From the IMG/VR virus record IMGVR_UViG_3300033067_000634, positions 1 to 43,774 of that record: DNA of 43,774 nucleotides; one strand, written 5' to 3'. A model generated the notes under the pieces. The model worked only from the letters and a program-made list of their open reading frames with translations, did no database searches and was not told the DNA's origin. The position numbers and the translations under genes are program-made. Source of the DNA: a virus (Duplodnaviria; Caudoviricetes). Positions 1 to 43,774 of this stretch are shown here, piece by piece (position 1 is the first letter of the stretch; each line of letters starts with the position of its first letter).

Positions 1-93
1 CCGATGAAACTTCTGTATGTATATCAACTTTCTGCATCTATTTAACTTTTGTGCTATTAATCCCCGCCTTCGGCAATACCAGAACCGTTATAA
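1..93 (+). repeat. attC-like site E1 (partial: loop, right arm and GTT box)
   Basis: CCCCGCCTTCGGCAATACC-AGAACC-GTTATAA resembles the right arm of E6 (CCCAGCCTTCGGCAAGCCG-TAGCC-GTT). The left arm lies outside the window. Confidence 0.75.
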
Positions 94-99
94 GCCATA

Positions 100-303
100 T
101 TAAAAGACGAACCACCCAAAGAACTTTTCTAAATATGGAAGTATTCCTAACCACATTATTAGCTTAAACAAACCTATTCCAATCCATTTACCAGCATTAG
201 CGGATACTACTAAAATTAATAAACCGAAGAAAATACGGCTTATAACAGCACCTAAACAAGATGGCTGTTTTTCGTTTTCAATTGAAGTTTTATCTGTATT
301 CAT
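100..303 (-). CDS. Small membrane protein, cassette cargo; starts inside the E2 loop
   Basis: Hydrophobic C-terminal part; the segment QPSCLGAVIS is encoded by the E2 left arm and AAC box. Confidence 0.65.
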   Translation of the reverse strand: MNTDKTSIENEKQPSCLGAVISRIFFGLLILVVSANAGKWIGIGLFKLIMWLGILPYLEKFFGWFVF

Positions 304-371
304 AAATTCGTTTTTTAATTTAAGTTTCGAGGTATTAATCAGCCACCTCGTTTAGCTGCAAACCGTTGTGT
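240..371 (+). repeat. attC-like hairpin site E2
   Basis: TTATAAC-AGCACCTAAACAAGATGGCTG ... CAGCCACCTCGTTTAGCTGC-AAACC-GTTGTGT, an imperfect inverted repeat. Confidence 0.85.
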
Positions 372-385
372 GCAAGGCTACCAGA

Positions 386-667
386 CTACACAATTTTAAC
401 CATCTTGTATGTAATGGATTGGTAGTTATCATCAAACCTTGTCAGTCTCCACCCTTTTTCATTTGCCTGTTTTTCTGCAAACTCAAACTCACTATCATTA
501 AGGGTTGGTATTTTATCAATACCGTTGTTTAAGTGGAAACTTCCATCTCCACTTTCTGCACCCATACTAATAATGCCATTAAATTGTGTTATAAAATCAT
601 CAACCGTTTCGTAATTGACTTTTTCTTTCTTTAGTTTGATATTTTTTGCATCAATAAATTCTTTCAT
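386..667 (-). CDS. Hypothetical protein, cassette cargo
   Basis: 93-aa ORF filling the space between GTT 365 and AAC 696. Confidence 0.75.
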   Translation of the reverse strand: MKEFIDAKNIKLKKEKVNYETVDDFITQFNGIISMGAESGDGSFHLNNGIDKIPTLNDSEFEFAEKQANEKGWRLTRFDDNYQSITYKMVKIV

Positions 668-691
668 TTTCGTTTAATTTACCCGCCCTGC

Positions 692-779
692 ACACAACAA
701 TCGGTTTTATGCTATGCCGGACAGTTTGTTTATAATTTAAAGTACCTAAGTGGCACAGCATAAAGCCGTACCGTTATAA
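692..779 (+). repeat. attC-like hairpin site E3
   Basis: CAAC-AAT-CGGTTTTATGCTATGCC ... GGCACAGCATAAAGCCG-TACC-GTTATAA. Confidence 0.85.
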
Positions 780-818
780 GCAAGCTGGCTAACGCACGGG
801 CTTCACACGTCAGCCAGC

Positions 819-1389
819 TTATAACACGGGCTTTGTAAAATAAAGTAGCCCCGCCCGCCTATGGTATAAGAACGCACTCAACTCCAATTTGAGTAGCAAG
901 TTCGTATTCTTCTTTCACACCTTCTTTCACTTCACCAACAAATAGGGCAATGCCATTCAGTCGCTTAATGTTTTGTAGCATCAATAGTCTGCTCATTCCT
1001 AAAGTATCGGATGCTCCAAACCATCTAATTTGATTTTCGCCTGAAATTTCATCCAACGCATCTACCACTTCTGTACCAAAGCCTTTTGCAACTACGGTTT
1101 CTCTTGGTAAAAAGCAGTGATGTAAAACGGCTGATGGTTCTCCTTCTGCTTTTTCAGAGAAATCAATTAGGCTTTGGTTCTCTAACCAGTTGTCAATCTT
1201 CTTGTCAATTTCTGCCATCGTTTGCCCTTTGATGGTGAAGTGAATTGAGGCATCATACTTCTTACTACGTTCTGTTTTTTGTGATTCTTTTTCCATTTTG
1301 TGATTTTTTATTTAGTTTAACATTAATAATTTATCTTCCAAGTTGCTACACTTCGCTACTTTACTTCACAAAGCCCGAAACCGTTATAA
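819..1389 (+). repeat. attC-like site E4 with a whole gene in its loop
   Basis: Left arm TTATAAC-A-CGGGCTTTGTAAAATAAAGTAGC (819-849) pairs with GCTACTTTACTTCACAAAGCCCG-AAACC-GTTATAA (1355-1389). Confidence 0.85.
859..1296 (-). CDS. Hypothetical protein located in the E4 loop
   Basis: 145-aa ORF with a globular alpha/beta-like composition; no family recognised. Confidence 0.75.
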   Translation of the reverse strand: MEKESQKTERSKKYDASIHFTIKGQTMAEIDKKIDNWLENQSLIDFSEKAEGEPSAVLHHCFLPRETVVAKGFGTEVVDALDEISGENQIRWFGASDTLGMSRLLMLQNIKRLNGIALFVGEVKEGVKEEYELATQIGVECVLIP

Positions 1390-1415
1390 GCAAGGCGGTG
1401 AAAAACCGCCCAGAC

Positions 1416-1931
1416 TTATAACACGGGCTAAGAAGAAATAAAAACAACCCAGCCATCCTGTGTACTAATAAGCCTTTTCGTGTTTATAAGGTCTTGTCTT
1501 ATTGTATTCCAATTTCAATCTAATATGAGTTTCCAAGTCAATTCCAAATCCTTCGCAAAGGTCAAACAAACGAATTACGGTGTCGGCAATTTCATCTTCA
1601 AATGTATCCTTAACATTGTCTTTAAACGCTTGTATTGTAGCTGAATTTTCGTGAAACGGTGTGCTTTGTCTGTCTTGATTAAATTGCACCACATTTGCGA
1701 ATTTATTTTTTCGGTGTGCCTCCAACGCCTCCGATAATTCACTTACGCAAAGCATTAAAACTTCACCCACATTTTTCGTTTGTTTGTCCTCCCAAAAACC
1801 TTTTTTTACATTGTCTTGGTGGATTTCTGTCATCATTTTTTTGATTTCCATTGTAATTGTTTTTTTAGTTTATAAATTCAGAAGCCTTCCCTTCTGTTGT
1901 TTTTACTTCTCTTAGCCCGAAAACGTTACAG
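1416..1931 (+). repeat. attC-like site E5 with a whole gene in its loop
   Basis: TTATAAC-A-CGGGCTAAGAAGAAATAAAAACAAC (1416-1448) pairs with GTTGTTTTTACTTCTCTTAGCCCG-AAAAC-GTTACAG (1896-1931). Confidence 0.85.
1465..1851 (-). CDS. MazG-like nucleoside triphosphate pyrophosphohydrolase, in the E5 loop
   Basis: SELSEALEA and EDEIADTVIRLFD acidic motifs; C-terminal KLEYNKTRPYKH. Confidence 0.8.
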   Translation of the reverse strand: MEIKKMMTEIHQDNVKKGFWEDKQTKNVGEVLMLCVSELSEALEAHRKNKFANVVQFNQDRQSTPFHENSATIQAFKDNVKDTFEDEIADTVIRLFDLCEGFGIDLETHIRLKLEYNKTRPYKHEKAY

Positions 1932-1938
1932 GCAAGTG

Positions 1939-2655
1939 TTACCGACCTGCTACGATTTGAAAGTATCTATCTTTTAATGCTCTCAAATAAATATCATTTG
2001 GAATACCGTAATTCCCTATTGCCCACATATCGTTAAATTCTACAACGACATTCTCATTATTTTCTAAAACAGCAATATCAACTGTATAAGCACAAGGGAA
2101 TTTGCCTTTATTATTAGCAATAACCGTCATAGCATATTCATAATTTGGAGAAACTATAAATTCACCAGAGTAATTTCTTGCATCAATAAGTTTGTCATTA
2201 TGCACATATAAACGCCATTCACTAATAATTTTACTATTGAATACTTCGTAAGCCATTACCTTAGTTTCATTTGGCAAATTGGATAAGCAATAGTATCTCA
2301 TACCATCAAGAATTAACCCTGTAAAAAGTTTTATCTCAATTGGTTTAATAAATAACTTACTACCATTTGCAACTCTTTTATGAGCATCTTCAAGTGTAAT
2401 TACCTCACAATCTCTATTTGAGTTAATTGGCAATCTGACATCATTTAAACCTATCCTTTTGAAAACTTCTCTCATAAATTCAGTTGAACCTACAAATAAG
2501 TTTTTCTTAATGAGCATATCAAACTTACCACTTGCAACTTCTTCAAAAGATGTTAAGCGATAATCCATAGCGTTATCAATTGCACCATATAATGCACAAG
2601 AGCAATCAAAATGATGCGCTAATGCTCGTTCTGTATTTGACTGTATGTAAATCAT
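1939..2655 (-). CDS. ATP-grasp domain protein (DUF4343-like), cassette cargo
   Basis: LFIKP..KLFTG, SEWRLYV, YTVDIA and VVEFNDMWAIGNYG motifs. The start is re-assigned to MIYIQ (2655) because the longer start crosses site E6. Confidence 0.75.
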   Translation of the reverse strand: MIYIQSNTERALAHHFDCSCALYGAIDNAMDYRLTSFEEVASGKFDMLIKKNLFVGSTEFMREVFKRIGLNDVRLPINSNRDCEVITLEDAHKRVANGSKLFIKPIEIKLFTGLILDGMRYYCLSNLPNETKVMAYEVFNSKIISEWRLYVHNDKLIDARNYSGEFIVSPNYEYAMTVIANNKGKFPCAYTVDIAVLENNENVVVEFNDMWAIGNYGIPNDIYLRALKDRYFQIVAGR

Positions 2656-2680
2656 AATTTGTTTATTAATCCACACCTGC

Positions 2681-2811
2681 CTGTAACATCGGTTTGCCAA
2701 AAGCTGGGCAGACATGGTAAACTCAGCTTTTGTACCTTTAATCGGCTTTTGTACAAGGGTTCAGCTTTAGTGCTTCTAATCCCAGCCTTCGGCAAGCCGT
2801 AGCCGTTAGCG
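2681..2811 (+). repeat. attC-like hairpin site E6
   Basis: CTGTAAC-AT-CGGTTTGCCAAAAGCTGGG ... CCCAGCCTTCGGCAAGCCG-TAGCC-GTTAGCG. Confidence 0.85.
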
Positions 2812-2817
2812 GTAATG

Positions 2818-3108
2818 CTATTTAGCCACCGTTTCATTTTGCACCCTTACTTCGTGAGATGATTTACCGTTTGATTGTTGGTATGCTGTTTCTACTTTAC
2901 CCCTGCAATCAGTCCAATAAACAGCGTGTCCTCCATCGGTAAAGCGGTAAATCTTGCACCCATCTTTCTCAAACAGCAATTCCACATTGAAATTTCCGTT
3001 ACTTGTTTGTTCTTGCTGTTGCCCATCTTTCAAGCATCCTGTAAGCACTACCGCTAACATCGCACTTAACGCAATGGCGGCTTTTGTTCTTAATTTGAAG
3101 TTTCTCAT
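2818..3108 (-). CDS. Small lipoprotein (DUF4884-like), cassette cargo; starts in the E7 loop
   Basis: Signal peptide with lipobox LTGC; VELLFEKDGCKIYRF.DGG motif. Confidence 0.75.
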   Translation of the reverse strand: MRNFKLRTKAAIALSAMLAVVLTGCLKDGQQQEQTSNGNFNVELLFEKDGCKIYRFTDGGHAVYWTDCRGKVETAYQQSNGKSSHEVRVQNETVAK

Positions 3109-3182
3109 TTCTATTTATGTTTATTTGTTAATTAAAATTCTCGTTTCTAAACCGCCACTGCGTAAGTGCGTAGCCGTTATAA
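3052..3182 (+). repeat. attC-like hairpin site E7
   Basis: CGCTAAC-AT-CGCACTTAACGCAATGGCGG ... CCGCCACTGCGTAAGTGCG-TAGCC-GTTATAA. Confidence 0.85.
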
Positions 3183-3187
3183 AACAT

Positions 3188-3334
3188 TTATTTTTTGCTT
3201 TTTGCCAGAGCGCGTTTGACGTATTTAGTAATCGGCTCAATTAGTGACAAAGGCAATCTAAATGATACTGTTTTTGTAGGTTCGCCATATTTATTTTTAC
3301 GACCTGCATTTAATCTTTTTCCTCCGTGTTTCAT
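3188..3334 (-). CDS. Small putative DNA-binding protein
   Basis: GGKRLNAGRK motif followed by TKTVSFRLP (RHH-like). Start re-assigned to MKHGG because an upstream ORF occupies 3343-3504. Confidence 0.6.
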   Translation of the reverse strand: MKHGGKRLNAGRKNKYGEPTKTVSFRLPLSLIEPITKYVKRALAKSKK

Positions 3335-3342
3335 ATATAATT

Positions 3343-3504
3343 TTATTTTTTTTCTTGCTTTATATTTGATGCATTTTGTATCTGTAACCAAATATTTTTT
3401 TCATAAAACCTTAGAACGCCCAAAACCTCAAATACAGAAAACACATTTATTGTAATTGAATTTTCTCCATCATTTTTTTGTTTTATTATAATTGTTTTTT
3501 CCAT
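3343..3504 (-). CDS. Hypothetical 53-aa protein
   Basis: Hand-translated MEKTIIIKQKNDGENSITINV...QEKK*; fills the gap in a tight operon. Confidence 0.5.
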   Translation of the reverse strand: MEKTIIIKQKNDGENSITINVFSVFEVLGVLRFYEKNIWLQIQNASNIKQEKK

Positions 3505-3509
3505 TTTTA

Positions 3510-3701
3510 TTAGTATATTTGTTCGTTGCCAACCCCGCTTCCTGATTGAACAGCGCGCTCAGGGTTGGCGTTTTCTTTTAATAACTTTATATGTTTTTTA
3601 GTTTTAAGGAACATTTCTTTCTCAAACCTTCCCTTCACACTTCTAAAAAAATCACAGCACAATTCAAGGTGCATAATTAAATCTTCATTATTATGCTTCA
3701 T
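3510..3701 (-). CDS. Hypothetical protein
   Basis: 63-aa ORF packed tightly with its neighbours. Confidence 0.55.
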   Translation of the reverse strand: MKHNNEDLIMHLELCCDFFRSVKGRFEKEMFLKTKKHIKLLKENANPERAVQSGSGVGNEQIY

Positions 3702-3861
3702 TGTTTTCTATAATAAAAGAAGTTATTTTTTCCCTTAATTCAATTTCACTCATATTAGACGCAACATCAAAACCTCCTAAATAATTACAAAGCTCTTCGT
3801 TAAAAATAAAGGCTATTTCCATTTGGCTTTTTGTTGCTGTTGTTATGTTTAAGTCTTCCAT
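3691..3861 (-). CDS. Hypothetical 56-aa protein
   Basis: Hand-translated MEDLNITTATKSQMEIAF...NNEA*, directly after a promoter with an A-rich leader. Confidence 0.55.
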   Translation of the reverse strand: MEDLNITTATKSQMEIAFIFNEELCNYLGGFDVASNMSEIELREKITSFIIENNEA

Positions 3862-3886
3862 TTAGTTTTTGTTTTAATTGTATGAT

Positions 3887-3918
3887 GTAAAGATACAGCT
3901 ATATTTTGAATCTGCAAA
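3887..3918 (-). promoter_or_regulatory. Bacteroidota-type promoter carried inside a cassette
   Basis: Minus strand TTTG (-33) ... TATCTTTA (-7 variant) upstream of ORF 3861. Confidence 0.6.
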
Positions 3919-4017
3919 CTTTTTCAAGATTATTTTAGTGTTTTGTTGTAACTAACTGATAATCAAAAAGAATAATTTAGTTAAAAACCAACTAAAAAAA
4001 GCAAAAAATAAACGATT

Positions 4018-4095
4018 TTATAACACGTAATTGGCGCAAGCCTTTCACGTAGGGTTCCTGTTAACGGCCTGTCGCCAATCACGAAACCGTTACGC
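4018..4095 (+). repeat. attC-like hairpin site E8 (terminal site of the array)
   Basis: TTATAAC-A-CGTAATTGGCGCAAGCC ... GGCCTGTCGCCAATCACG-AAACC-GTTACGC; the GTTA overlaps the stop codon of ORF 4090..4314. Confidence 0.8.
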
Positions 4096-4314
4096 CACCC
4101 TCTTTACTATCAGATACCCCTCCCCATCATTACCTACCGAGAATTTTTTATCCCTATTGTTTCTGTAAAAAGCCTGTACTAGCATCCTCATTTTAGCGGC
4201 TTTCTTTGTTTCGTACACTCCATCATAAAAACACTCGCCAATCTCTAACGCTGCGAATGGATAAAATGTTCTTGCTGGTCTTCCAACTTTAGGGTATGTT
4301 TGTTTTCTTTCCAT
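4090..4314 (-). CDS. Small putative DNA-binding protein
   Basis: YPFAALEIGECF...KKFSV...LIVKRVA pattern of small phage DNA-binding proteins; first gene after the leftward promoter. Confidence 0.6.
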   Translation of the reverse strand: MERKQTYPKVGRPARTFYPFAALEIGECFYDGVYETKKAAKMRMLVQAFYRNNRDKKFSVGNDGEGYLIVKRVA

Positions 4315-4337
4315 ATATGTATGTTATTTTATATACA

Positions 4338-4367
4338 CAAATATAAGCAAAAATAACCACATAGCAA
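4338..4367 (-). promoter_or_regulatory. Leftward Bacteroidota sigma-A promoter reading into the cassette array
   Basis: TATATTTG (-7) at 4345-4338 and TTG (-33) at about 4367-4365. Confidence 0.7.
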
Positions 4368-4424
4368 GTTTATTATAATAAAGATATTAACAACCGAATG
4401 TTTACAATTTAATATACTAAACTA

Positions 4425-4454
4425 TTGCTAATATCAAACAAAGTTGTATATTTG
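4425..4454 (+). promoter_or_regulatory. Rightward Bacteroidota sigma-A promoter (early operon)
   Basis: TTG at 4425 and TATATTTG at 4447-4454. Confidence 0.7.
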
Positions 4455-4489
4455 TGTATGATTATTAACAAACATAAAACCCAAACAGC

Positions 4490-4729
4490 ATGAAAAACAC
4501 AGTAGAAATAATAAACATATCCGACATAACGGTATCGTTTAAGGATAGGTTATTTGACCTTAAGACTACCCCACAGGTTGAATTAACCAAACAAGCCCTA
4601 AAACATATTACATATAAAACAAATATGTGGGTTTACTCTAATATATGTAAATATGACGGTGTTTTAATTGAGTATAAAACCCAAACAACTGACGAAATAA
4701 ACAATTTTACTATTCACTTTTTAAACTAA
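4490..4729 (+). CDS. Hypothetical early protein
   Basis: First ORF after the promoter, with an A-rich leader. Confidence 0.65.
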   Translation: MKNTVEIINISDITVSFKDRLFDLKTTPQVELTKQALKHITYKTNMWVYSNICKYDGVLIEYKTQTTDEINNFTIHFLN

Positions 4730-27217: not shown

Positions 27218-27400
27218 ATGGCTGTGAATAATGAAAAATTAACCTTCATCGCAAAACTAGACGGTTGCGCTGCTGAATTAGTAAACAATTTGATCAAAGA
27301 GAAAAAGGAAAAATTAGAGTTAACAATGTTTGGTAAATCCCGCGCGGTGCAAATACTTCTCTGCGAACTTTATCATCTGAAAAAGAAAATAGCGAAATAG
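27218..27400 (+). CDS. 60-aa putative regulator (RHH-like)
   Basis: Start re-assigned to the ATG after the + promoter; strand LTFIAKLD followed by two helices (GKSRAVQILL). Confidence 0.5.
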   Translation: MAVNNEKLTFIAKLDGCAAELVNNLIKEKKEKLELTMFGKSRAVQILLCELYHLKKKIAK

Positions 27401-27463
27401 CTCAGTTGGTAGAGCGTTTGTTTCATACGCAAATGGTCACAGGTTCGATTCCTGTTTTCGCTA
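27391..27463 (+). tRNA. tRNA with CAT anticodon (elongator Met or Ile2)
   Basis: Acceptor AGCGAAA/TTTCGCT, D arm GCTC-AGTTGGTA-GAGC, anticodon arm TTTGT-TTCATAC-GCAAA, T arm ACAGG-TTCGATT-CCTGT; no encoded CCA. Confidence 0.9.
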
Positions 27464-28369
27464 CTACTCTAACACACCCGCCAACTCAGGTCGCCTGCGA
27501 ATCGCCTCACGGTTACTAATAAAATTAGGACTGTGCCGGCAATTGTGACCGCCCATATCTTCCATTGGATTGTATTCTCCTTCGGCTTCGCTCCACATAA
27601 CCCCGTCATCTTCTCCTATTGTGTCCGTCCATTCTTGCGCCTCATCGGTTGTATAAACCTTGCCGTTGTTATGTTCACAGAATAGGCGAGATGTTTTAAT
27701 TAACCCACCAGCGTATATAAACGCGCGTAAGCCTAGCTTTTGAGCGAATAGGTTTTGATTGGCTCGGTCGTATTGTGAATAGGTGTCGCGCGCGAAGGTG
27801 TTAAAGTGCTTCTTTAAACCTCCGTCAATCTTATCGGTTCCAACTATTGTAGTATTGATTCGTTTAAGATAATCGCGTAATGGCGTACCGCTTGTAACAG
27901 CTTTATAGGTGTCTTTCTTGATCTTACTTAATAGGGTATTGTCCTTTAGTAATTTGTCAAGATAGCCCTCTTTTATAATGCCACCGTCAGGCTTAATACC
28001 TAGCCGCTTGCTCATTATTGACCGGACATCTTTAGTTACTTTGGCTATCTTTTTATTGTCAGATTCTACTATACTGAAATACCTGTCATTGAGGTTTTGA
28101 AGTTCACCTAAATCCCCTGCAAATTGCCTGATAACTTTAACGTATTCTTCTTGCTGAAACTCAGTCCATACCTTATCAATACGGCTTACCAGTTCTACGT
28201 TCTTTACTGATGGGTTTATCTTACCTTCTGTCTTTTCAAACTCATCTACAATGCGGCTAATAACTACGTCTAACAGCTTACGTTCTGCTGCTGATACTCG
28301 TTTGCTTAGTAGTTCTGATCGCGTTCTTATGAAGTCCTCACGCAGTTGGGCTATTTGTAAAGCTGTCAT
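27464..28369 (-). CDS. Minor head/head morphogenesis protein (gp7/Mu F-like)
   Basis: After the portal; TSRLFC and GGHNCRH motifs. Confidence 0.75.
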   Translation of the reverse strand: MTALQIAQLREDFIRTRSELLSKRVSAAERKLLDVVISRIVDEFEKTEGKINPSVKNVELVSRIDKVWTEFQQEEYVKVIRQFAGDLGELQNLNDRYFSIVESDNKKIAKVTKDVRSIMSKRLGIKPDGGIIKEGYLDKLLKDNTLLSKIKKDTYKAVTSGTPLRDYLKRINTTIVGTDKIDGGLKKHFNTFARDTYSQYDRANQNLFAQKLGLRAFIYAGGLIKTSRLFCEHNNGKVYTTDEAQEWTDTIGEDDGVMWSEAEGEYNPMEDMGGHNCRHSPNFISNREAIRRRPELAGVLE

Positions 28370-41358: not shown

Positions 41359-42222
41359 TTATGCTGCTTTTAACCGTCTAAGGTAATTATCTTGTACTAA
41401 CACACACTGAAGCGGAGTTTTTATCTTACTTATGTGGTTGTGGCTGATATGAGAATATATTTGAGTCGTTTTAATATTGCCGTGTCCGAGTAGCTTTTGT
41501 ATTATTGACAGGTCGATACCACCCTCATGTAGATGTGTTGCGTAACAATGCCTAATGAGGTGTGGGTAAACCCTTTTGTTGATTCCGGCTAACTGCGAAT
41601 ACTTTTGAATGAACTGCGCTATACTTCGCTCTGAATATTGCGGGTCGTTTTGACCGTTAAATAAGAAAAGCTGTGGTCTGTATTGCCTGAAATATAAACG
41701 TAGCAACTGAAGTAAGGTTGGGTCTAGTGATACCTGTCTATCTTTCCCACCCTTTGCATCAATAATATTAATAACCATACGTGAACTATCAATATCTTGT
41801 ATACGCAAGTTTATAACCTCACCAACCCTAATTCCAGTTGAGTACATTAAACAAAGAATTGTTTTGTGTTTCAAGTTTGATGCGCAGTGGATAATACGCC
41901 CCATTTCTTCTACCGACAAAACAATGGGAAGTTTTTGCTTTTTCTTACAATATTGAATGTATCTAAATTTATTTGGCTGTTTTGCTACATAATAATAAAG
42001 CCTTTTGATTGCAGAATGGTAGCCTCTTTGAGTATTATGTTCTTCAAATGAATATAAAAATTCTTTAATATCATACTCAGATATGTGCTTTAAACTATCT
42101 CTTTCCTTAAATCTTGAAAGAAACAAAGTAGCACACGATACATAATTTTTAATTGAGTTATCTCTATACCTTCTACCTCTTAACTCAAACTCAAACTTTT
42201 CGATTAACTTTGATATTTCCAT
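41359..42222 (-). CDS. Tyrosine recombinase, IntI/XerD-related, lacking the integron I2 insertion
   Basis: SAM-like N-terminus, KLPIVLS, and catalytic R (GIRVGE), K (AKGGKDR), HxxR (HLIRH), LGH and Y (TTQIY). Confidence 0.92.
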   Translation of the reverse strand: MEISKLIEKFEFELRGRRYRDNSIKNYVSCATLFLSRFKERDSLKHISEYDIKEFLYSFEEHNTQRGYHSAIKRLYYYVAKQPNKFRYIQYCKKKQKLPIVLSVEEMGRIIHCASNLKHKTILCLMYSTGIRVGEVINLRIQDIDSSRMVINIIDAKGGKDRQVSLDPTLLQLLRLYFRQYRPQLFLFNGQNDPQYSERSIAQFIQKYSQLAGINKRVYPHLIRHCYATHLHEGGIDLSIIQKLLGHGNIKTTQIYSHISHNHISKIKTPLQCVLVQDNYLRRLKAA

Positions 42223-42259
42223 AGATTAAAGTATTAATAGTTAATTAATTAGACTAATT

Positions 42260-42282
42260 GCATTACATATTTTATGTTACCT
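42260..42282 (+). other. attI-like primary site
   Basis: GTTACCTGC at 42276 matches GCAGGTAAC at 43113 but has no hairpin arm before it (TTTTAT-GTT instead of arm-NNNNC-GTT); 54 bp upstream of the integrase ATG. Confidence 0.65.
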
Positions 42283-42289
42283 GCAAGTG

Positions 42290-43015
42290 CTACATTTCGT
42301 TTCCAAAGAGAGTTCCTGCTTGTAATTCTTTTTCTTTTCTTTTTTCTCCCACCTTTTCTAAAATGGTATTTTCTTTTTCTTTGTCAATTTCTGAAATAAT
42401 GCAATCAATATCATTCTGCTTACATACTTTCATAGTCGTTCCGCTTCCTCCAAATGGGTCATAAACTACATTCGGTTTATTGGGTATTGCATCAAGTATG
42501 TTTTGAACTATTCCATCAGGCATTACTGCAATGTGGTTTTGGTCTTTTCTTTGGTGTGTCGGAACTAATCTCCATACATCAGATAAGGAATTTTTATTAA
42601 GCAATTTTACTTTTGGCTTTTTAGTTAGCCAATAAATTCTTTCTGAAAATGGGAAGAAGCGTATTTTATCACAATTTGCACTTTTACCCATATCCCAAGT
42701 AATCTCTTGCTTAATTACAAAATCAGTTTTTAAAAGCCATTCCATCGGGTGTATTGCTTTACCATCTTTAATTCTTACTTTGTGGTTGTAAAACATACTA
42801 CCATTTTCAGAAAGCACTCTGTAACATTCGTTCAATACTTCAATTTGCCATTTTTGATAATCAGGTTCTTTCATATCATTATTTGCATAACTTCCAAATT
42901 GTAATCGGTTACTGTGCATTTTGCCTATATTATAAGGCGGTGAAGTAATAATCAAATCAATACTATTATCTTCAAATCGTTTAAGCGTTTCTTCGCAAGG
43001 TTCTATATAAATCAT
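42290..43015 (-). CDS. N6-A/N4-C DNA methyltransferase (beta class), cassette cargo
   Basis: TSPPY motif IV precedes DPFGGSGTT motif I. Confidence 0.9.
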   Translation of the reverse strand: MIYIEPCEETLKRFEDNSIDLIITSPPYNIGKMHSNRLQFGSYANNDMKEPDYQKWQIEVLNECYRVLSENGSMFYNHKVRIKDGKAIHPMEWLLKTDFVIKQEITWDMGKSANCDKIRFFPFSERIYWLTKKPKVKLLNKNSLSDVWRLVPTHQRKDQNHIAVMPDGIVQNILDAIPNKPNVVYDPFGGSGTTMKVCKQNDIDCIISEIDKEKENTILEKVGEKRKEKELQAGTLFGNEM

Positions 43016-43114
43016 ATTTTTAATTTTTCAAATTAATATTTGCCATCGCACAAAAAAGAAAAGAAAAAGTGTTTGCGTTCCAAATCAAGTTCTGTGGTAA
43101 TAATCCGCACCAGC

Positions 43115-43208
43115 AGGTAACAGCGTATATAAGAAATGGCACATCGGCATTAGTGCTAAATTTCAACATTATGAAAGTGCCACTTCTCATATACGCAAAA
43201 CGTTAGTG
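43115..43208 (+). repeat. attC-like hairpin site E9
   Basis: AGGTAAC-A-GCGTATATAAGAAATGGCAC ... GTGCCACTTCTCATATACGC-AAAAC-GTTAGTG. Confidence 0.85.
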
Positions 43209-43237
43209 GCAATTTAAAAACAAAGCCACCGCACAGT

Positions 43238-43438
43238 TTACTCTTTAATAACTACCTGTCCAACATTTCTAAACATTCCTACATATACATCATACTTATT
43301 CGGTTCATCTGTTTCCGATAGTTCAATGCTTTTACTCATCAAATGTTTAGAAAGTTCTCTCCACATTGCTTTTTCGTTCTTTACAACAATAGTTTTGTTA
43401 ATGTTGTTTCTGCCTAAGTTAATCAGTTGTAATTCCAT
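43238..43438 (-). CDS. Hypothetical protein, cassette cargo
   Basis: 66-aa ORF between GTT 43202 and AAC 43465. Confidence 0.65.
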   Translation of the reverse strand: MELQLINLGRNNINKTIVVKNEKAMWRELSKHLMSKSIELSETDEPNKYDVYVGMFRNVGQVVIKE

Positions 43439-43460
43439 CGCTTTTTGTTTTTAAACAGAC

Positions 43461-43590
43461 CACTAACAAATGCTTGTTGCAAGTGGCAGTCTGTGGTTTA
43501 TATTAAGTTAATTGTTTCAAATAATCTTAGTCGGTTAATGAACATTCGTGCTTTTAATGCCACCTGACAACAAGCATCGGCACGTTAGGT
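43461..43590 (+). repeat. attC-like hairpin site E10
   Basis: CACTAAC-AA-ATGCTTGTTGCAAGTGGCA ... TGCCACCTGACAACAAGCAT-CGGCAC-GTTAGGT. Confidence 0.85.
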
Positions 43591-43611
43591 GCAATGCCGT
43601 GAACATCTCCG

Positions 43612-43773
43612 TCAGAACATTCGCAGTTGACTATTCCAGTCATTAAAACGCTTTTCTTGTTTCTCATAATATTCTTTGTCAATTTCAAATCCTATAAATT
43701 GTTTACCCGCCTTTGCTGCTGCTATTCTTGAACTTCCGCTTCCTACATGGGTATCTAAAATCAAATTTGCCTC
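43612..43773 (-). CDS. C-terminus of a second DNA methyltransferase (truncated by the window end)
   Basis: Hand-translated EANLILDTHVGSGSSRIAA..FIGFEIDKEYY..QLRMF*. Confidence 0.75.
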   Translation of the reverse strand, partial: EANLILDTHVGSGSSRIAAAKAGKQFIGFEIDKEYYEKQEKRFNDWNSQLRMF

Positions 43774-43774
43774 C

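Follow-up and report, generated by a model that had tools for sequence, protein, structure and literature searches.

Phage cassettes with genes inside the predicted hairpin loops of their probable recombination sites, in an integron-like array beside an Xer-like recombinase

We propose that two neighbouring units of a phage cassette array are true mobile cassettes, in which the gene lies inside the predicted single-stranded DNA hairpin loop of the site and which an Xer-like recombinase joins at G|TT. We hold this reading to be probable, the hairpin loop likely representing a second cargo slot that is absent from known integrons. The array works like an integron cassette array and departs from it by a recombinase devoid of the IntI insertion, by the polarity of its genes and by the length of its sites; the feature is real and recurrent. 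In the proposed mechanism, the minus strand would fold with the help of G-T pairs, and the Xer-like recombinase would cut and join the folded site at G|TT. In the excised circle, the tiny body would close an uninterrupted hairpin (about -42 to -45 kcal/mol), which would allow the site to fold locally and to integrate with ease at the attI-like site. The excision from the array would require the pairing of arms that are 450-500 nt of single-stranded DNA apart and, for this reason, would be rarer than for short sites. A second process would reload the reusable frame with ORFs cut near their start and stop codons, and short-homology recombination by the phage ERF/NinG proteins is a candidate for this step.

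The window, i.e. the stretch of DNA analysed here, is a whole contig of 43,774 bp, and its kin were sampled solely through locus scans. It carries phage genes (terminase, ERF and NinG), and its host is likely a member of the Bacteroidota because, among cultured phages with an array of this kind, the best match is the Polaribacter phage Leef_1, whose recombinase shares 34% identity with that of the window. The array (Table 1) starts beside the recombinase gene, runs to the contig end and likely resumes at position 1 after a gap; a search for a terminal repeat joining the contig ends found none. The units are built in the order GTT core, body, AAC, left arm, loop, right arm, G. Every array gene in the window lies on the minus strand, and the sites read AAC...GTT with the unit's own core on the plus strand. 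The genes are thus inverted with respect to the classical polarity, which places the loop on the gene's own 5' side, and the classical arrangement, in which the gene precedes its attC on the top strand, is not encountered in the window. The 5' core of the window units pairs with their own AAC end at 10-14 of 14 positions, and this pairing averages 8.6 of 10 over 30 mini-bodies (bodies of at most 70 bp). In this core only GTTR is conserved, the full GTTRRRY not being kept.

Several observations concern the array as a whole. Its first cassette encodes a DNA methyltransferase (42290-43015, minus strand), a cargo also described in phage attC arrays (PMC9892861), and the cassette cut by the contig end (43612-43774, minus strand) looks like the tail of a second DNA methyltransferase. 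At the array terminus (4089-4490), a GTT without partner AAC adjoins a divergent intergenic region. Transcription of the cassette genes runs from the 4089 side to the recombinase, which would place the newest cassette farthest from any promoter located there; a promoter scan of positions 1-4500 gave chance-level counts (18 vs 16.8).

Table 1. Positions of the recombinase gene, the array and the parts of the two inside-out units in the window
Feature	Positions	Strand	Remark
Xer-like tyrosine recombinase, 287 aa, without IntI insertion	41359..42222	-	points away from array
attI-like region	42223..42278	+	first GTT at 42276
Array start	42276..43774	+	GTTs at 42276, 43202 and 43584; reaches contig end
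Array remainder at other contig end	87..4091	+	crossover GTTs at 87, 365, 773, 1383, 1925, 2805, 3176 and 4089
Inside-out unit 1, 610 bp	773..1382	+	GTT to base before next GTT
Unit 1 gene-less body, 53 bp	773..825	+	5' core vs own AAC end: 12 of 14 paired
Site 1 left arm, 23 nt	827..849	+	no bulge; two A/C mismatches (G-T pairs on minus strand)
145-aa gene in loop	859..1296	-	conserved
Site 1 right arm	1355..1377	+	then 5-nt spacer, GTT at 1383
Inside-out unit 2, 542 bp	1383..1924	+	next GTT at 1925
Unit 2 gene-less body, 40 bp	1383..1422	+	
Site 2 left arm	1424..1448	+	one-base bulge
Putative 128-aa MazG-like pyrophosphatase gene in loop	1465..1851	-	PHROG 9236 match
Site 2 right arm	1896..1919	+	then 5-nt spacer, GTT at 1925

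The earlier note on this DNA had read the two units as inside-out cassettes, with self-complementary bodies of 53 and 40 bp and with whole genes between the arms of the site, and these readings hold. The body lengths are exact from GTT to AAC end, the complementary words are GCTGGCT/AGCCAGC (784-790 and 812-818) in unit 1 and GGCGGT/ACCGCC (1394-1399 and 1405-1410) in unit 2, and both ORFs, of 145 and 128 aa, are complete and entirely enclosed by the arms. From AAC to GTT the distance is 557 nt in unit 1 and 502 nt in unit 2, of which about 500 and 450 nt separate the arms; with 7 nt of core included on each side, the sites reach 571 and 516 bp, which is indeed beyond the usual attC size, reported as 57-141 bp (PMC5371416). 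The other loops between 87 and 4091 comprise 64-118 nt. The word CTTATAACACGGGCT opens both long sites, as had been noticed, but it is not peculiar to them and also opens the short-loop sites L094 and L137. An arm finder, which pairs the sequence after an AAC with the sequence before a GTT, detected 9 sites in the 43.8-kb window, all of them within the array, and the two long sites obtained the top arm scores (20 and 19.5 of 22); among the controls, 30 shuffled windows yielded a single site (score 16) and 1.12 Mb of control loci none. The feature that stays constant is the A/C (G-T) mismatch, the extrahelical bases amounting to a one-base bulge in site 2 and to none in site 1.

On the integron-integrase model TIGR02249, the recombinase scores 156 bits for a cut-off of 265, in a match split in two stretches. 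Its match to the IntI4 structure 2a3v also falls in two stretches, that to XerC/XerA-like chains in one, and the latter are its closest solved relatives. From the split match and these best structures we infer that the enzyme has no IntI insertion; the IntI-specific insertion in the catalytic domain, which is described as essential to integron function (PMC8138268), is therefore absent. An attI-type first insertion point, which would function as a recombination site, adjoins the recombinase gene: the first GTT stands 53 bp from the start codon, with a similar spacing and a TACATAT-like word in close relatives. Sites are present in 12 of the 18 loci of close relatives, with one polarity throughout. 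A search with the single recombinase sequence returned 0 viral loci, and a search with a recombinase alignment led to 80.

The minus-strand folds of the two long sites have z values of -5.4 and -3.9, 0 of 100 shuffles being as good, and the minus strand is predicted to fold better at 9 of 9 window sites and to pair better at 34 of the 36 long sites and at 77 of the 93 short ones; the commonest plus-strand arm mismatch is A/C, with 202 cases. These sites are in this respect similar to classical attC sites, for which a bottom-strand G:T bias has been reported (PMC5027507), the bottom strand being favoured through G-T pairs in both. By equilibrium folding only, the long arms pair with a probability of 0.97-0.99. 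The dumbbell with a central stem that had been postulated for the excised units is also what is predicted for the circularised sequences, the circle junction being an unbroken hairpin (-44.8 and -41.9 kcal/mol at 25 C). For classical attC sites, long loops cost up to 4 logs under replicative conditions, and single-strand delivery abolishes this penalty (PMC8946536).

Since the folding bias and the G-T (G-U) pairs are on the mRNA-sense strand and each stem encloses one ORF with its leader, the long stems might be kept for an RNA role, in message processing or stability, with GTT/AAC cores left over from short sites. We give little credit to this explanation: it does not account for changes of neighbour exactly at G|TT, nor for the match of the core with the unit's own AAC and the fixed polarity relative to the recombinase, and the mini-bodies are not called as terminators. 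When both were tried as intrinsic terminators, neither was called, with 4 sites vs 2.6 by chance. An RNA role can nevertheless coexist with the DNA role.

Units of this kind form a class, which speaks for the mobile-cassette reading. The pattern scans covered 84 viral loci (mostly chance matches), 8 further viral loci of which seven had been met already, 21 metagenome loci and 3 genome records. They and the recombinase-picked loci contain 36 long-loop units with an ORF of at least 50 aa in the loop, distributed over 33 unrelated cargo clusters. Among the metagenome loci, 16 have a long loop, 3 are cut by the contig end, 1 is without a partner arm found and 1 (L263) has a short mismatched arm. 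The site set started from 172 calls, reduced to 145 by removal of identical loops and to 138 by removal of six isolated weak sites and one nested site. At the 107 sites that were not pattern-picked, the loops measure 45-130 nt in 93 cases, 170-240 nt in 6 and 240 nt or more in 8; among those with known bodies, mini-bodies accompany 5 of 6 long loops vs 1 of 90 short ones (p 6e-7). The 31 pattern-picked sites include 30 long ones, and a mini-body is present in 25 of the 28 with a known body. Of the 41 sites in the loci selected by the recombinase only, 5 are long, and all have the polarity of the window. Arm scores are higher for long-loop sites than for short ones (19.0 vs 17.4).

Between ordinary and inside-out units there is a continuum, with genes in the body, across the arm and in the loop, of which the inside-out units are the end point. 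The longest ORF has its start in the loop and extends across the left arm in 1 of 35 units with loops of 45-100 nt, in 28 of 48 with loops of 100-150 nt and in 6 of 6 with loops of 150-240 nt; in the inside-out units, the stop codon too is within the loop, at most 45 nt from the AAC in 33 of 36. In the window, two minus-strand ORFs (100-303 and 2818-3108) begin in ordinary loops of 117-118 nt and run through the left arm into the body, the second with a beginning that, read by eye, is signal-peptide-like.

The arms of long-loop sites co-vary. In 25 distinct arm pairs of the unit-2 family, where L134 represents the pair of the window, the arms score 21.9 of 28 with their own partner vs 17.3 +/- 0.5 when permuted, and 0 of 20,000 permutations reach the own-partner score, a result that is not a clean probability since the frames are related rather than independent samples. 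The own partner is best or tied in just 13 of the 25 pairs because sub-types share arms. The neighbours of these units change at the crossover point: in 30 of 30 pairs of long units with a common right flank (21 units, counted after removal of identical loops), identity falls to background after GTTR, and the core behind the long loop fits the AAC of the next unit better than that of the long unit itself in 17 of 21. L105 and L152, the sole two-contig identical-loop pair examined, have the same downstream neighbour. L260 and L270 have in common a 290-bp unit with 2 differences, with GTT at both ends and unrelated neighbours on both sides. In L270 this unit comes first at an attI-like site, 51 bp from a 30-codon ORF that resembles the start of a recombinase and looks like the first codons of a deleted one, no profile match being found in the 905 bp available. 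These breakpoint footprints fit the opening of a circle at G|TT, without proving excision. No circle or excision joint of a long-loop unit was seen in the sequences examined, joints of undefined content being left out of this count. The earlier note had proposed to look for the two window units with identical boundaries in other arrays: neither was found whole with other neighbours, and the frame of unit 1 was not met elsewhere, its right arm having 0 viral matches and none of the 21 metagenome loci carrying its arm.

Part of these data could be accommodated by long sites that work only as incoming circles, or hardly at all, with homologous recombination by ERF/NinG in the shared 40-90 nt flanks doing the rest. 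Consistent with such a scheme are the ERF and NinG genes of the window, the nearly unchanged reuse of frames, the slowing of classical attC sites by long loops, and the two L260/L270 differences, which are confined to the last 27 nt, in the right flank, where a crossover in that shared flank could also be expected to put them. We nevertheless judge it unlikely. Free swapping of flanks should mismatch the arms, yet 25 of 25 distinct pairs reach at least 19.5 of 28 with their own partner, a count biased against mismatched arms by an arm finder that needs pairing (one mismatched case, L263, was recognised by eye), and the breakpoints lie at GTT on both sides.

Four pairs of sites with near-identical short loops (L094/L275, L118/L279, L181/L268 and L189/L256) are unlike in the 4-5 core bases ahead of the AAC, which hints at a rewriting of the cores toward a match with the 5' core of the unit. 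The pairs stay partly alike farther upstream, and a clean second crossover exactly at the AAC is not established.

Both loop genes belong to real families. The 145-aa protein has no Pfam or PHROG family; its language-model features resemble DUF4406/DUF7768 clusters (0.83-0.86), which is a lead only. Its gene has 13 relatives with 35-94% identity. Two distant homologues have an extra C-terminal part and one has an extra N-terminal part. The MazG-like protein matches PHROG 9236 (E 1.7e-32) and, in all, three PHROG pyrophosphatase families at E 1e-22 or better each; it obtains 20.8 bits on the Pfam MazG-like model, under the cut-off of 27, and its gene has 137 viral matches. Homologues of the 145-aa gene are located in ordinary bodies at 50-51% identity (L001 and L282) and the window copy in a loop, from which it follows that cargo uses either compartment. 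Together with the 36 long-loop units, this supports the earlier idea that cargo can occupy either loop of the dumbbell. Most of the long-loop cargo proteins (31 of 36) are without PHROG family.

The close homologues of the MazG-like gene are ordinary phage genes without sites nearby (0 sites of score at least 15 in L004-L025), and mobile elements that insert into attC, such as the group IIC-attC introns, exist. It could thus be supposed that the loop genes are independent insertions into the loops of empty cassettes, which inactivated the sites. The earlier note had named this as the outcome opposed to its reading, and it is contradicted by arms that co-vary and neighbours that change at the crossover. 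We consider it very improbable and largely refuted by the mini-body, co-variation and L260/L270 data, the long-loop arms outscoring the short ones and the mini-bodies being nearly absent at short loops. No transposase or reverse transcriptase is recognised in the two loop genes (Pfam, PHROG), nor in the other 34 long-loop cargo proteins (PHROG).

Frames with different genes recur. Four loci (L266, L268, L271 and L276) share the 40-bp body of unit 2 without a difference, each with another gene and another upstream neighbour. In L134, the loop flanks of unit 2 surround an unrelated 77-aa gene whose stop is at the same offset (42) and whose ATG is at 74 vs 73 nt. Over the 36 units, examined without a null model, the flank shared between different-cargo units could be scored at the stop in 23 cases, of which 18 end -3 to +12 nt from it, and at the ATG in 22, of which 15 end at most 10 nt away. 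One contig of run X5 (depth 4.7, with 30 nt on one side) carries the 145-aa gene (96%) with a unit-2-type left arm attached at the stop codon. Parts of unit 2 were met in other studies, positions 1385-1630 in X7 with 6 differences and 1462-1891 in X2 with 14 differences, and parts uncovered in runs X2-X7 were not taken as absent. Among 185,579 genomes searched for the unit-2 arm, 3 records have it, all on short contigs (1.3-2.2 kb) whose taxa are discordant, for which reason the naming of a bacterial host from these records was dropped. The GenBank phages have no DNA match to the frames; three weak matches fall on the MazG gene, and there is one 23-nt match at E 0.6.

These exchanges lead us to a more specific and tentative proposal, whose chances we rate as rather low: a two-slot capture system, in which a Xer-like recombinase without the IntI insertion would shuffle single-stranded dumbbells with both loops as cargo slots, and in which reusable empty frames would receive ordinary phage ORFs, cut out from start to stop codon. 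If this were true, cassette genesis would be seen in the act, and dozens of same-frame, different-gene pairs would mark the capture points. The way in which a gene is first turned into a cassette has been called largely unknown (PMC5371416), and the recurring frames with different ORFs, whose shared sequence ends near start and stop codons, provide defined substrates for tests of cassette genesis.

The array shares with integron cassettes its tandem units bounded by GTT/AAC, the pairing of the 5' core with the unit's own 3' core, the arms with an unpaired spacer, and the recombinase gene that is beside the array and points away from it. It differs from integrons by its inverted genes, by the conservation of GTTR only and by its recombinase without IntI insertion. 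Its spacer is mostly 1 nt vs 5 nt (88 of 138 sites), unlike attC, and its long sites of 516-571 bp, and of about 1.09 kb in L186, hold whole genes in a loop that comprises 20-100 nt in attC sites (PMC4889954), a group to which Vibrio repeats with large terminal loops belong. Phage genomes, that of a Polaribacter phage among them, are known to carry integrons and integrase-less attC clusters (Qi et al. 2023, PMC9892861). These phage attC sites were located with IntegronFinder and HattCI models, and 5 of the 6 tested recombined with IntI1 at G|TT, the bottom strand being preferred; the sections of that report used here describe no loop genes, mini-bodies or Xer-like partner recombinase, in contrast with the present array. 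Gene-less integron cassettes have a body without ORF (bioRxiv 10.1101/2023.11.21.568050), whereas here the body is merely 29-70 bp and the gene has moved into the loop. Extra DNA at an attC site is known from group IIC-attC introns (PMC3001079). These introns and the IS1111-attC elements are self-mobile, in contrast to the varied small phage genes found here without mobility enzyme. In IS1111-attC elements, too, extra DNA is found at the attC site. The literature searched, with few subscription papers, contained no description of a gene-in-site-loop layout.

Integron models take the attC loop as a short structural spacer, of about 100 nt at most. If gene-bearing loops of 0.45-1 kb recombine, single-strand recombination is less limited by size than has been assumed, and surveys with short-site models would merge or miss such cassettes, i.e. 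approximately 1 site in 8 (5 of 41 in recombinase-picked loci). IntegronFinder and HattCI have an attC size limit of about 200 bp. Single-strand recombination would also gain a new route if a recombinase without IntI insertion acts on folded sites.

Some members of the class deserve separate mention. In L186 (9455-8378, minus strand), the body is a 70-bp hairpin, after which comes a loop of 1,077 nt whose arms pair well and which contains ORFs of 171 and 157 aa, the first of which is presumably a BRO-type antirepressor by its look. The cultured phage Leef_1 has this array type, with an annotated DUF551 gene inside a 273-nt loop (L280 8119-8393; MT732473 ~27254-27528) and an arm score of 17.5 of 22; this long-loop site may have decayed, its GTT reading ATT. 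In L263, near 959, the family mini-body and left arm are followed by a short loop and a right arm that does not match, probably as a deletion chimera. A C-rich word, defined after the data had been seen, is found at the inner ends of long loops (left in 25 of 36, right in 15 of 36); as a universal swap site it was rejected, with 2 and 8 of 83 body ends and 0 of 81 short loops, and it is a trait of the frame family only. Finally, a minimal body of 29 bp recurs in the window (3176-4024) and in L088, L134, L169, L179, L202 and L260, with a fixed 11-nt middle, cores that change jointly at both ends and different loops attached; the window copy is an 849-bp body with the halves of a 29-bp-type body at both ends, as if cargo had been put in mid-body.
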